The notes: a model not told the origin generated them from the sequence alone. A DNA stretch of 64,000 bases from a bacterium (GCA_965213625.1 CBDBZU010000004.1:2112001-2176000); one strand, 5' to 3'; positions 15,104 through 20,386 are shown, numbered from the stretch's first letter. Numbers and translations: made by a program.

Positions 15104-15319
15104 TTCAGAAATCCTCCTGGATATCCAATCATTTAATATCTTAGGCGAAGCGGCCAAAGTATATTCACGAATCGTTAAATTCATACCCTTTGAATTCATG
15201 GAGTTCACCATACTCCCGCTAATATATCCCATTTAATGAATGTTTCAAGACCTAAAAATGTGGTTTCTTGCATCGGGGCCATATATAGAGTTTAAGAAAC
15301 ATTCGTGAGAAAGCGCTGG

Positions 15320-15348
15320 TTGACGCAATTAGTAAGGCCCCATATAAT
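15320..15348 (+). promoter_or_regulatory. Sigma70 promoter of the marR-LLM unit
   Basis: TTGACG-17 bp-TATAAT. Confidence 0.7.
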
Positions 15349-15382
15349 TAGGCTCCATAGCATCTGTTTTCGGAGCAAACCC

Positions 15383-15925
15383 ATGTTCTACATGAAAGAA
15401 CTGCCCAACGAGGAAGATTTCAGGCCACTCGTTCCGGAATATTCTTCTCTGGATACTTCTTCCGTTATGCTTTTTTATCTTTTCTTGCAGGTCGGCAGCG
15501 ATATGCTCACCGCCTTTGAAACGTATTTGGCCGATCACGGCGTTTCGCAGGGCAGATTCATAGTTTTGCTGTTGTTGTTGCGCTCCCAGGCTAGAAACAA
15601 CGGCTCGGGTCTCAGCCCGTCGGAGTTGGCAAGGCAAGCGGGCGTGACGCGCGCGACGATGACCGGGTTGATGAAAGGACTTCAGCGTGATGGACTCATC
15701 GGGCGCTTCAGCCACGATGGCGACAGGAGGAAAGTCATCGTGCGCCTTACGCGCAAGGGAAAAGAGAGCCTGAATGCTATTTTCCCCGATTATTACTCGC
15801 GCATAGCGGAACTCATGAATGATTTGGAGGACGATGAACGGGAGAAATTGTCCAAGCTCCTTCATAAAGTGAAGAATAAAATTTACTCATCAAAACAGGC
15901 GCTGGCCGCAAGCGCTCAAGGATGA
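15383..15925 (+). CDS. MarR family transcriptional regulator
   Basis: LSPSELA..GVTRATMT.L..L...GLI.R....DRR...V.LT.KG. Confidence 0.92.
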   Translation: MFYMKELPNEEDFRPLVPEYSSLDTSSVMLFYLFLQVGSDMLTAFETYLADHGVSQGRFIVLLLLLRSQARNNGSGLSPSELARQAGVTRATMTGLMKGLQRDGLIGRFSHDGDRRKVIVRLTRKGKESLNAIFPDYYSRIAELMNDLEDDEREKLSKLLHKVKNKIYSSKQALAASAQG

Positions 15926-15959
15926 AGAAAACCCTCTGACGAGGAAGGAGAATAAGGAA

Positions 15960-17204
15960 ATGGCGAAACCCAAAGTGATTATCCAGCTATATCCCATGCT
16001 GCCGACGGAAAACCGGGAGGAGCGCGAACAGAAAAGGCCTCTGGCCAGAGACAAGGATTTGTACCATCACGTGCTTCATGAATGGACCGATATCGTGAAG
16101 GCAGCCGATGAAATGGGCGTATGGGGCATCAGCACCATCGAGCACCACCTGCATTCGGAGGGTTATGAGGTAGGCCCCAATCCAGGCGTTCTCAACGCTT
16201 GGTGGGCTAACCATGTCAAGAATGCGCGGGTGGGCGCGCTCGGTTACGTCATGGCGACTCAAGATCCGATTCGCGTGGCAGAGGAGACGGCCATACTCGA
16301 CCACATCACCAAGGGGAAGTTCTTCTGTGGTTTGGCAAGAGGGTATCAGTCCAGGTGGTCGAACGTGCTGGGACAGTTCAGCGACACCCGGGCCACTGTC
16401 TCCGACGCCCTCGGCGGGGCCGACGACGTGAAGAACCGCGACATTTTTGAAGAGCGCGTCGAGATGCTCCTGAAATTCTGGCAGGAAGATTCGGTGGAAG
16501 TGAAGGGCGATTACTACGAGATTCCTTACCCGTATGAGGACGGCATCGATTATCCGGCCTGGAAGAGCGCCCGGGACGCCGGCGCAATCGGAGAAGTCGG
16601 CGATGACAATCGGGTGCGGAGGGTGAGCGTTGTTCCCAAGCCCTATCAGGAGCCTTACCCGCCCATGTTCCAGGCCGTGAGCGCGAGCCCGGATTCCATA
16701 AAATTCGCGGCGAAGCACGGGTTCCGACCCGTGTATTTCACCAAACTGGAAAAAATGGAGGAATTCTCCCACCTCTACGTTGAGGAAGCAGCCAAGGCGG
16801 GCCACAACTTTGCGCACGGCGAGAGGCAGTGCGTCTGCCGGTGGATTCACGTAACGGACACAGAAGAAGAGTACGACGAGAAACTCAGGAAATACGATCA
16901 GGACATCTACCAGAACTTCTACGTGCCCTTCTTCCCGCAATTCCCCGACGATACGGAGAGCATCGACTGGATCCAGAACATCAAGGAAAGCGGCATCTTC
17001 CTGGGTGGTCCGGTGGACAAGCTCAAGCGCGAGTGGGAGGAAACGTACGAGAAAGTGCCTTCTGAGTTCATCACCCTGATCTGGCACTATGCGCAATGCC
17101 CCAAGGAAGAAGTCATTTACGAATTGGAAACGTTCATGACGAAAATCTGGCCCGACCTGGAGTGTCCGGTGTCGAACGGCGTCACGGTCGGCGGCGTCGC
17201 CTGA
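15960..17204 (+). CDS. Luciferase-like (LLM) flavin-dependent oxidoreductase
   Basis: EHH motif, DPIRVAEE.A.LDH.TKG, PKPYQ.P.PP. Confidence 0.9.
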   Translation: MAKPKVIIQLYPMLPTENREEREQKRPLARDKDLYHHVLHEWTDIVKAADEMGVWGISTIEHHLHSEGYEVGPNPGVLNAWWANHVKNARVGALGYVMATQDPIRVAEETAILDHITKGKFFCGLARGYQSRWSNVLGQFSDTRATVSDALGGADDVKNRDIFEERVEMLLKFWQEDSVEVKGDYYEIPYPYEDGIDYPAWKSARDAGAIGEVGDDNRVRRVSVVPKPYQEPYPPMFQAVSASPDSIKFAAKHGFRPVYFTKLEKMEEFSHLYVEEAAKAGHNFAHGERQCVCRWIHVTDTEEEYDEKLRKYDQDIYQNFYVPFFPQFPDDTESIDWIQNIKESGIFLGGPVDKLKREWEETYEKVPSEFITLIWHYAQCPKEEVIYELETFMTKIWPDLECPVSNGVTVGGVA

Positions 17205-17219
17205 TATTTGATAACGATG

Positions 17220-17249
17220 AAGCCCCCGCATTCACTTGCGGGGGTTTTT
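17220..17249 (+). terminator. Intrinsic terminator after the LLM gene
   Basis: CCCCCGCA-TTCACT-TGCGGGGG followed by TTTTT. Confidence 0.75.
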
Positions 17250-17267
17250 CGGATTGATTTTGAGGAG

Positions 17268-17987
17268 ATGAGCATGTACGAAATCATCGATCTGAGCCAG
17301 GAAATTTACACCGGAGCACCCAGGTTTCCGGGACATCCGGCAACGACGATCGAATATGTCGCCAGGCACGAAGATGCGGCCAATGCGCCGATCAAACCCA
17401 AGGACATCACGTACGCGGCCATGATGCTCCATATGTGCGATCACGGACCGACGCATACCGATTCGGTCAGCCACATCGATGAGCGCGAAACGGCGCCGAA
17501 CATCGATCAGGCGCCATTGGAATGGTTCATCACAAGGGCGGTTGCGCTGGATTTCACGGGCAAGGTGGAACCGATGGAGGAGATTTCCTTACAACTCTTG
17601 CAGGATGAACTTTCCGCAGCGGACTTGACGCCCCCCAGGGACGGCACGCTCCTCTTCACGGGCGGCCATTTCAAGCGCACCTACCCGACGGATGATTATC
17701 TGAGCACGTACCCGGGTTTGGGCTATGACGCCGCGAATTTCCTCTATCGCGAGTGCGGCGTGGTGAACATCGGCCAGGATGCGCCCAGCATCGACGCCGG
17801 CGTCAACACCATAGAACTGACGTTCCCCTGTCATGTACTTTGCCGGGAACTCCAGCGTCATAACACGGAAAATCTCGCGAACATCGAAGCCGTGGCGGGG
17901 GAGGAATTCCTCTATGTGGGGCTCCCGCTCAGGATTCGCGCAGGCACGGGCTCTCCCATACGAGCCGTCGCCGTGATGAACATTTAG
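17268..17987 (+). CDS. Cyclase/kynurenine formamidase-like family protein
   Basis: IIDLSQ, HGPTHTD, ENL.N, GSPIRAVA; GAGGAG adjacent to ATG 17268/17274. Confidence 0.88.
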   Translation: MSMYEIIDLSQEIYTGAPRFPGHPATTIEYVARHEDAANAPIKPKDITYAAMMLHMCDHGPTHTDSVSHIDERETAPNIDQAPLEWFITRAVALDFTGKVEPMEEISLQLLQDELSAADLTPPRDGTLLFTGGHFKRTYPTDDYLSTYPGLGYDAANFLYRECGVVNIGQDAPSIDAGVNTIELTFPCHVLCRELQRHNTENLANIEAVAGEEFLYVGLPLRIRAGTGSPIRAVAVMNI

Positions 17988-18107
17988 TCAAGCGGGGGCA
18001 TCCTCGCCTTCATCATGAGTGAATTGCGGGGCAACTTCCCAATCGTTCTGCATACGTTATGATTTTTTAACGAGAGGGTTCACGTTTTTTTAAGGAGGTT
18101 TTGAGAC

Positions 18108-18458
18108 ATGTTGAAGACAGTGGATTGGTATTACCACCGCTCCGGCTGAAAGACCTGCGCCAAAACGCAAGCGTTTCTTGCGGAAAATGGAATCGAGATA
18201 TCAGAGCAGGCCAGTTCCAGAAAAGACGTGGTGGATGAGGACAACGTCGATTCGCTTCTGGATGGCGTGACGGACCTGTATTCGACCAAGAGCAGGAAAG
18301 TAATTCACCTGAATCTCAAAAAAGAGAAACCTGCGCGCGAAGACGTGCTGGCTCTAGCGATGGGTCGCTCGGGCACGCTCAGGGCGCCGGTCATCAAACA
18401 TCGAAACACGCTCATCGTCGGCTTCGATGAAGATACCTACACCAAGGTATTGACGTAA
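18108..18458 (+). CDS. ArsC/Spx-like thioredoxin-fold selenoprotein (UxxC), in-frame TGA at 18147-18149
   Basis: AAGGAGG RBS then ATG 18108: MLKTVDWYYHRSG-U-KTC..., in frame with the 18228-18458 ORF (G.LRAP, LIVGF.E..Y); hairpin CGCAAG-CGTTT-CTTGCG downstream of the TGA. Confidence 0.88.
18166..18182 (+). promoter_or_regulatory. Putative bacterial SECIS element (ArsC-like gene)
   Basis: 6-bp stem CGCAAG/CTTGCG with loop CGUUU, starting 16 nt after UGA. Confidence 0.65.
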
Positions 18459-18475
18459 ATTTTTTCTGGGACGAC

Positions 18476-19930
18476 TTAGAGGGCCAACTGGCCCTGTGTG
18501 GGCTCCGCTCAGCAAAACCACGATTCGGTCAGGCGAGGCGGGCGGATTCGATCGGGTGCGAAGGTAGCCTTTGGCAGCGCCTGATCGGGGCGCTCTAGAA
18601 TATCGGCCGCCAGTTCGCGAAGCCTTGCAAAAGTCATGGCGGCGTCCTCCTGGCGCGCTGCCGCATCTTCGGCGAGGATGAGTGCCTCCTCGTGTAGTTT
18701 GTCCATTTTTTCGTCCGGATGTTCCCAGCGGCAGATGAAATTCTCGGGGTCGAGTTCGGTGACGTATCGCTCCATGTGGGGGGAGCGGAGCAAATGGGAA
18801 CCCGGTGGCACGAGCAGGCGAATGGCCATCTGAATGGGGTCGACCTCGTCGATCAATGTGTATTCTTCGATGAAATCCAGCAGATCGAAATAATCCTGAG
18901 AGCTCGTCCACGGCGTGAATGCGACCAGAGACGGCCGTATGGAAACATCCGCTTCCCGGGCGGCTTCCACGGCGCGGAAAACGTCTTTTCTGTTGTGTCC
19001 TTTATCCAGATGACGGAGGACGAGGTCGCTTAAAGATTCCATCGCGGTGACGAAAAACACGCATCCGTATTCCCTGAACTCCGGCAGAAGCTCCTCGTGC
19101 TTGATGATGTGCTCGACCTTGGCCGTGAAGTCGAAGGTGAGCGAGGGGAACCTCTCGTGCATAGCGCGGGCGACTCGAAGCGCATGAGTGGGGCCGTTCA
19201 GGAAATCCGGGTCCGCAAAGGTAATGTGGCGTGCGCCCTGCGCTGCCAGATATTCAATGTCCTCTAAAACCTTATCCTGGTGCACGATGAAGAAACGTCC
19301 CTCATAAACCGGTGGAATGGGGCAATGGAGGCATAAGTGCTTGCAGCCGCGGCTCGCCTCGACGGCCCCTGCGGGGTAGTGATTCTCCCCATTTACCAGA
19401 TGGGCGTATGCCTGGAGCGCGGGCAACTCTTCTCGTTCTGGTTTGAGTAGTGGGATTTTTTCGAGATACGGGCCGGATGTGTGCTCTCTCGTGGCTGCGC
19501 CGGAAACCTGGGTGGCGCCTGAGTTTTGGGACAGCCCTTGAACGAGCTTCACGAGCGGCAACTCGAACTCGCCGCCGATGGCCGAATCGCCGCCGTTTTC
19601 AAGTAGATAGCCTTTGTTAAGCAGACCGTAGAGGCCGTAAAAACAAATGTGGCACGCGGGGTTCGTCTCGCGTACTTTCGCCGCCACCTCCACGCCGAGC
19701 CTGAGCGCGGTGTGCATGGGTACGCTGATGCCGACGAATTTCGCGTTTGTGATTTTTTCTTCTGAGAAATCCTCTACCGCGATGTCCATCGCCCGGGGCT
19801 GGAAACCCGCTTCGCGTAAAAAGGCCAGGGGAGAGGCGACCGCCAGGGGCTGGTGTCCCAGCTCATAGCAGGAGATGAGGACGACGGCGCCGGGTGCGCG
19901 CCAACCGGAGTCTTTATCGTTTCGGTTCAT
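18476..19930 (-). CDS. Cobalamin-binding radical SAM selenoprotein with CUAEP tail; TGA at 18511-18509 read as Sec
   Basis: B12-binding-like N-terminus; CKHLCLHC radical SAM motif; ...RLTESWFC-TGA-AEPTQGQLAL-TAA; hairpin follows the TGA. Confidence 0.88.
18480..18495 (-). promoter_or_regulatory. Putative bacterial SECIS element (radical SAM gene)
   Basis: 6-bp stem AGGGCC/GGCCCT with loop AGUU, starting 13 nt after UGA. Confidence 0.65.
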
Positions 19931-19952
19931 GGTGAAAGCTCTCGATCGTCAC

Positions 19953-19986
19953 AAAAAAAGCCCCGGGCGCATGATGCCCGGGGCTC
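19953..19986 (-). terminator. Intrinsic terminator after the IscA-like gene
   Basis: Minus strand AGCCCCGGGCA...GCCCGGGGCT followed by a T run. Confidence 0.75.
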
Positions 19987-20002
19987 GTAAGACATTGTTT
20001 TA

Positions 20003-20386
20003 TCACGCAGTGAACGATTTTCCGCAGCCGCACATGCTCATGGCGTTGGGGTTGTTGATCTTGAAGCCGGAGCCCTGGAGGCTGTCGATGAAATCGATTT
20101 CCGTTCCCGCGATGACGGGATAGCTCTGCGGGTCCACGAACACGTCGAACTTCTCGGCGTGGAAAACCTTATCCTCCGGGTTGGCGGATTCCTCGAAATA
20201 GAGGCCATAGTTGTAACCCGAGCACCCGCCTGCGGTGACGGCCAGACGCAGCCCGTGACCGCTCTTGCCTTCCGCCTCGAGAATCTCGCTCACCTTCTGG
20301 TTGGCGAGCGGCGTAACCGTAATGCCTTCAAGGGCTTGTGGTTTTTCTTGGGATTGATCGAATAAAGTGACCGTTCCATCCGTCAT
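20003..20386 (-). CDS. HesB/IscA/ErpA family Fe-S carrier
   Basis: GGCSG, NPNA..CGCG.SF; AGGAG RBS before ATG 20386. Confidence 0.93.
   Translation of the reverse strand: MTDGTVTLFDQSQEKPQALEGITVTPLANQKVSEILEAEGKSGHGLRLAVTAGGCSGYNYGLYFEESANPEDKVFHAEKFDVFVDPQSYPVIAGTEIDFIDSLQGSGFKINNPNAMSMCGCGKSFTA

Follow-up and report, generated by a model that had tools for sequence, protein, structure and literature searches.

The window analysed here, a stretch of 64,000 nucleotides of bacterial DNA (GCA_965213625.1 CBDBZU010000004.1:2112001-2176000), most probably encodes two independent, already catalogued selenoproteins, whose genes lie side by side and convergent in a single lineage, inherited as part of a stable gene block. 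Both families are known, and as a pair they form no new system; the main interest lies in the chemistry of one of them, NF040546, a widespread and unstudied relative of ArsL. The features of the locus are as follows.

18092..18099, plus strand: Shine-Dalgarno sequence of the ArsC-like gene, AAGGAGGT, strong, read directly from the sequence
18108..18458, plus strand: predicted ArsC/Spx-fold selenoprotein, 116 aa, ATG at 18108, TAA ending at 18458, U14xxC17
18147..18149, plus strand: UGA, very probably Sec14, in a GUKTC context, aligned to Spx Cys10, conserved
18166..18182, plus strand: SECIS-like hairpin of the ArsC-like gene, 6-bp stem, 5-nt loop
18459..18475, no strand: spacer between the convergent stops, 17 bp
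18476..19930, minus strand: predicted CUAEP-tail radical SAM selenoprotein, 484 aa, ATG at 19930, TAA ending at 18476, ArsL-related
18480..18495, minus strand: SECIS-like hairpin of the radical SAM gene, 6-bp stem, 4-nt loop
18511-18509, minus strand: UGA, very probably Sec474, in WFCUAEP (C473-U474); TGA in 58, TGC/TGT in 16 and no tail in 6 of the best 80 loci
19958..19986, minus strand: intrinsic-terminator-like hairpin in the iscA/radical SAM interval, with a T run, z = -5.05, 0/200 shuffles as stable
20003..20386, minus strand: IscA/HesB A-type Fe-S carrier, ordinary Cys form, TIGR00049 120 bits against a cut-off of 58.8

This layout confirms that of the earlier note, which had placed the two genes on opposite strands, with their stops (18458 and 18476) separated by 17 bp and an IscA gene and a terminator upstream of the enzyme. 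No terminator-like site was found in the spacer at 18459..18475; its length elsewhere is 15–33 bp in 23 loci of the genus, and 17 and 153 bp in the related loci L062 and L063, respectively. IscA is matched by TIGR00049 up to model position 105 of 106 and lies below the cut-off of NF038090. Its terminal TGA was considered as a Sec codon and ruled out; it is a real stop, because the family model ends there and a TAA comes directly after. A hairpin like the one following iscA is present in 26 of 27 distinct loci of the lineage. Because only 27 bp part it from the enzyme start, we infer partial read-through, and the hairpin is probably a partial, attenuating terminator. In other genera of the lineage, iscA is preceded by Rrf2. 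The enzyme gene, co-oriented with iscA, would thus probably be carried on the iscA transcript through the leaky terminator, and IscA would supply the enzyme's [4Fe-4S] cluster.

The radical SAM protein belongs to NF040546 (663 bits against a cut-off of 500) and has both the C-(U/C)-A-E-P tail and the CxxxCxxC motif, whose C196, C200 and C203 are invariant in 30 sequences. Among 120 listed database homologs, 112 end at WFC, i.e., at the Cys before Sec, six have CCxEP, and two are partial. Because so many stop at this Cys, the putative substrate-binding tail is absent from public records of the enzyme, and restoring it is the modest gain for annotation. A wider sample of the enzyme, spanning many phyla, comprised the best 80 of at least 581 GTDB loci. 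The accessible text of Haft and Gwadz names NF040546 as uncharacterised (10.1101/2022.07.06.499078). A literature search for NF040546/NF041106 and CUAEP/CCAEP, with subscription journals mostly outside its scope, yielded only that work and PMC13188914 as relevant; a search of the same scope for ArsL with ATP-grasp or ArsL with selenocysteine yielded nothing on NF040546.

Its closest characterised family is ArsL. An ArsL-family protein from Priestia is 35% identical to the enzyme over 421 aa (E 2e-86), colinear and with the N-terminal domain included, and the ArsL profile NF040542 scores 312 bits, below its cut-off of 450; the tail reads WFCUAEP, not RCCLKC. ArsL breaks the C-gamma-S bond of SAM and transfers the aminocarboxypropyl (ACP) group to As(III), which is held by the RCCLKC tail (10.1101/2024.02.01.577332), and the ACP transfer to As(III) on this tail is also described in the available portion of 10.64898/2026.04.29.721666. 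By analogy, the window's enzyme would most likely work like ArsL; a transfer of ACP to a heteroatom held by Cys473-Sec474 we would rate at about an even chance.

The reading proposed in the earlier note, a B12-dependent methylase, was not upheld. According to this alternative, the enzyme would belong to the class B cobalamin-dependent methylases and, by analogy with HgcA, would methylate a metal(loid) bound at its Cys-Sec tail; we consider this improbable. It draws on the N-terminal Rossmann fold and its weak match to the B12-binding domain PF02310 (21 bits against a cut-off of 32.1), and on the heavy-metal handling to which the accessible text of Haft and Gwadz ties CU motifs (10.1101/2022.07.06.499078). 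A Foldseek search with the AlphaFold model of the enzyme (pLDDT 91, tail low) placed AprD4 first (E 3e-20) and TsrM close behind (E 1.4e-19), with OxsB and MgmA also among the top matches; because AprD4, which does not use B12, and TsrM, which does, score nearly alike, the fold is not decisive on cobalamin use. Against a methylase, the class B and B12 radical SAM families all score 55 bits or less, far below their cut-offs (best 54.5 bits against 650), whereas ArsL is much closer, at 312 bits and 35% identity over the same N-terminal domain. Moreover, AprD4 and ArsL homologs are named in the accessible part of PMC12931638 as binding no cobalamin despite their Rossmann-like domains. With a cobalamin-independent family as the nearest characterised relative, a cobalamin-dependent methylase is thus unsupported. 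Of the metal(loid) methylation/redox module that had been suggested for the two genes, the metalloid hint stands, as it fits the kinship with ArsL, while the cobalamin methylase and the joint module, discussed below, do not.

Returning to the ArsL-like transfer, As(III) or methyl-As(III) is a possible but doubtful acceptor, judged by analogy. Arsenic is weakened in this role because ArsM does not track the enzyme, ars genes do not recur among the neighbour clusters that could be identified, and the tail offers two ligands instead of three. No ars-operon context with ArsM was found, the ArsM-like gene lying about 2 Mb from the enzyme; ArsM was rejected as a partner, being present in 37 of 41 genomes, including seven without the enzyme, and not found in two that bear it (G031 and G032). 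No ars genes recurred among the neighbour clusters found in three or more of the best 80 loci, ten of these clusters having been scanned against NCBIfam and the rest judged by sequence. YggX and Acr3 were not found in the window's genome. The ArsM-like methyltransferase (L183:1450-2247) lies about 18 kb from the ligase/NfuA locus described next.

As judged from the gene neighbourhoods, the partners of the enzyme are likely Fe-S helpers and an amino-acid ligase. Among the best 80 of at least 581 loci, an ATP-grasp gene is located beside the enzyme in 36 (29 of the 52 with at least 3 kb downstream), NfuA lies near it in 28, and YggX is directly upstream in 11. An Fe-S or iron helper beside the radical SAM gene, such as the IscA pointed out for the window, is a recurring arrangement (IscA in the lineage, NfuA or YggX in the wider sample), and IscA looks like the lineage's version of the iron helper. 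The ATP-grasp protein is of the L-amino-acid-ligase type, its top matches being PRK02186 and BacD, both below cut-off. In the window's genome, it is encoded at a distance:

C4:134428-135678: ATP-grasp ligase about 2 Mb from the enzyme, with NfuA convergent to it; 52% identical to an enzyme-linked copy

The interval holding the ligase and NfuA is L140:6429-8288 (G000:C4:134428-136287, G000 being the window's genome). Presence of the ligase agrees with that of the enzyme in 40 of 41 relatives, the single exception being a genome 79% complete, versus 33 of 41 for the redoxin. A ligase copy directly adjoins the enzyme in five class-level relatives. Genomes G029-G033, of the same class, carry two copies, one beside the enzyme and the other elsewhere, and it is the distant copy that is closer to the ligase of the window's genome (53–55% versus 44–48% identity). 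An ATP-grasp ligase also occurs in the ArsL cluster of the Priestia megaterium plasmid NZ_CP059466.1 (L173:653-5269), possibly an independent pairing; this gene was rejected as an orthologue, being only 25% identical to the genome's ligase. Judging by gene context, the ATP-grasp ligase probably joins the enzyme product to another amino acid. That the ligase is kept though 2 Mb away, while the adjoining redoxin is apparently dispensable, guides which proteins to assay together.

The small protein is a member of NF041106 (122.6 bits against a cut-off of 85 for the NCBIfam profile), with the UxxC motif (U14-C17) in place. LRAP is invariant in this ArsC family (seleno)protein, and codon 14 is TGA in 46 of 46 family loci. 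A 2026 review describes NF041106 as a UxxC selenoprotein resembling arsenate reductase (PMC13188914, accessible part). The top PDB matches in both sequence and fold are Spx (E 1e-10; TM about 0.55), with scores below the Spx cut-offs (TIGR01617, 50.6 against 75; NF002459, 37.7 against 123), and TIGR00014, the glutaredoxin-dependent arsenate reductase, gave no match at E <= 0.01. No conserved neighbour was found across 24 redoxin loci. From these sequence comparisons, we consider the protein to be probably a stand-alone ArsC/Spx-fold thiol-disulfide redoxin, which would cycle a Sec14-Cys17 selenenylsulfide and, with no conserved partner, would act alone; a Spx-like regulator and an arsenate reductase are each unlikely. 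The same genome encodes many other redoxins and also, next to an aquaporin-like gene, a separate LMW-PTP-type reductase, whose motif and context suggest a role with arsenate. Upstream of the redoxin and on its strand are MarR, luciferase-like monooxygenase and cyclase genes (15305-17987 of the window); the redoxin may nevertheless be transcribed on its own, from a weak promoter-like site at 18036-18063.

In each of the 23 genus genomes, the two genes lie next to each other in convergent orientation. They sit in a 13-gene syntenic block extending from an M16 peptidase to HspR, with M16 peptidase-YccA-MarR-LLM-cyclase and ClpB-DnaK-DnaJ-HspR as further members. In G023, a genome of the same family (96% complete), ClpB-Rrf2-IscA-enzyme-YccA-M16 is kept, an MFS-like gene replaces the redoxin, and no match to NF041106 was found. 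In the wider sample (the best 80 of at least 581 GTDB loci), four loci have the redoxin next to the enzyme, all from its own lineage: two belong to the genus and two to close kin labelled Nitrospinae and Tectomicrobia. Among 78 enzyme-bearing genomes outside the genus, many of them incomplete MAGs, NF041106 was found in 20 and not in the other 58, and it adjoins the enzyme in two, both close kin; within this set, G043 and G024 seem to be one and the same genome. In three chromosome-scale cases (G032, G071 and G115), about 280, 440 and 690 kb lie between redoxin and enzyme, and G026 has the redoxin without the enzyme. The redoxins of the two related genomes with an adjacent pair (L062 and L063) show 52–56% identity. 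The genomes searched are mostly incomplete MAGs, and kin are not independent. Linkage together with co-occurrence of the redoxin and the radical SAM gene was not found beyond one lineage.

With adjacency confined to one lineage and the redoxin not found in 58 of 78 genomes, a two-selenoprotein module is unsupported. The joint module of the earlier note therefore fails, in the co-localisation across genomes that it had named as a check as well as in the occurrence of the redoxin, and its own alternative, coincidental adjacency, is the better reading. A narrower variant holds that the two form a lineage-specific pair, in which the UxxC protein reduces As(V) or the Cys-Sec tail of the enzyme, feeding the ArsL-like enzyme, with the layout kept by selection. 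The constancy of the arrangement, with a gap of 15–33 bp in the 23 genus genomes and adjacency in L062 and L063, makes selection for linkage within the lineage possible, and the proposal is chemically sensible: ArsL requires a reduced thiol tail and acts on As(III) only, As(V) not being used (PMC13598754, accessible part), and NF041106 is listed as 'arsenate reductase-like' in the available text of PMC13188914. It is nevertheless very unlikely, since convergent genes are not co-transcribed, synteny is common to unrelated genes, G023 and 58 of the 78 other enzyme genomes yielded no redoxin, the redoxin occurs without the enzyme in G026, it is closest to Spx and has no TIGR00014 match, and the genome has both the LMW-PTP-type reductase and the many further redoxins.

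Two independent selenoprotein genes, our preferred reading, could plausibly come to lie side by side by chance in this genome. A rough read-through scan gave 70 candidates, and 35 TGA sites belong to paralogue groups in which TGA is aligned to TGA or Cys. With singletons, the candidate Sec list comprises 46 sites plus SelD (about 47 genes), and 18 of 18 representatives matched thiol-redox or selenoprotein families. The probability of at least one adjacent pair is 0.31–0.48 for 38–50 Sec genes among an assumed 3,800; an adjacent Sec pair is thus unremarkable with about 47 candidates in the genome. This number is probably a lower bound, as the rough scan missed known cases; the record sizes of selenoproteomes are 57 and 63 according to the accessible part of PMC13188914. 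A second neighbouring candidate pair, OsmC-like and Blh-like sulfur transferase, was seen at G000:C4:315748 and 316368, on the same strand and with TGAs 620 bp apart. The candidate selenoproteome of G000:C4 is very large, with expanded AhpD/YciW-like CxxU (about 14) and UGSC (8) groups and further OsmC-like, deiodinase/Prx-like, PrdB/GrdB-like, DsbA-like and rhodanese groups plus GrdA; an AhpD-like gene at G000:C4:604967 apparently carries a UxxU motif, with two TGAs in frame. One group of seeming TAG/TGA read-throughs was rejected, as these resemble antisense frames and no PylS over the cut-off was found, and two further seeds were dropped, one a probable true stop and one an antisense frame.

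Both in-frame UGAs very probably encode selenocysteine. Sec machinery, which the earlier note had asked to be confirmed, is complete in the genome: tRNA-Sec was found together with selA, selB and selD (above cut-offs), and selD itself carries a TGA. Both genes combine the signs by which bacterial selenoproteins are recognised, i.e., a UGA at a Cys-homologous site, a downstream hairpin, and selA/selB/selC/selD. Among 41 related genomes, all 32 radical SAM matches contain one TGA. As to the expected Cys at the TGA sites, the radical SAM TGA alternates with TGC/TGT in 16 of the 74 tailed loci among the best 80 of at least 581 GTDB loci, and the redoxin TGA aligns to Spx Cys10. The claim of two selenoproteins hidden by stop-codon-based annotation is accordingly supported, with both UGAs and their hairpins conserved.

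The hairpins are supported by conservation across the families rather than by the window alone. Taken singly, neither of the window's SECIS-like hairpins is significant (z about -1.4, with 15–17 of 200 shuffles equal or better; p 0.13–0.19 against synonymous shuffles), and they were dropped as stand-alone evidence of Sec. Judged by eye, many of the 46 family loci have a stem like that of the redoxin with the same spacing. The sequence after the radical SAM codon folds with a mean of -11.5 kcal/mol in 56 Sec loci versus -4.2 in 16 Cys loci, and synonymous shuffles are beaten by 30 of 56 Sec loci versus 1 of 16 Cys loci, the kin among them not being independent. In 20 hand-picked Sec loci, a stem with a 5-nt loop shows 19 double-sided change cells, a number reached by 0 of 500 shuffles, and the 4-nt-loop register of the window scores lower; both structures were drawn by eye from the very sequences tested. 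That the TGAs are true stops or mark broken genes is scarcely credible: such a reading has on its side the insignificance of the window's own hairpins and the 112 of 120 database gene calls ending at WFC, and has against it the conserved sequence past each TGA, the exchange of TGA with TGC/TGT in the radical SAM gene, the hairpin present in Sec loci and weak in Cys loci, and the complete Sec machinery.

What was observed directly are the ORFs and their families, the conservation of the UGAs, the Sec machinery, and the distribution and synteny of the genes, whereas all of the chemistry is inferred. We tentatively hypothesize that the enzyme is a selenium-assisted counterpart of ArsL that would bond ACP to a metalloid and, with the distant ligase and Fe-S helpers, would make a metalloid amino acid or dipeptide not described so far; the pathway would span many phyla and, in this lineage, be split across two loci. 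The boldest version, in which the neighbouring UxxC protein would have been recruited in the lineage as the enzyme's reductant, is highly improbable.

Compared with known systems, the UxxC protein differs from NF041106 only in its adjoining radical SAM gene, a lineage-specific position. It resembles the Spx / YffB / glutaredoxin-dependent ArsC fold, with Spx as the nearest match in sequence and fold; unlike Spx, it falls below every Spx cut-off, has no TIGR00014 match, and has Sec in place of the first Cys. The enzyme shows no structural difference from NF040546, with which it has CxxxCxxC and the WFCUAEP tail in common, but its context departs from the usual one of the family, the ATP-grasp and NfuA genes being about 2 Mb away and IscA being the adjoining Fe-S helper. 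AprD4 (PDB 6fd2), TsrM and OxsB share with it a Rossmann domain and a partial TIM barrel at 12–17% identity. With ArsL, it has in common the B12-like N-terminal domain and a vicinal C-terminal pair, Cys-Cys or Cys-Sec, whereas its tail is CU-A-E-P, about 45 extra residues precede the tail, two tail thiol/selenol groups stand against three, and its context lacks arsQM and has an ATP-grasp ligase as the recurring partner.
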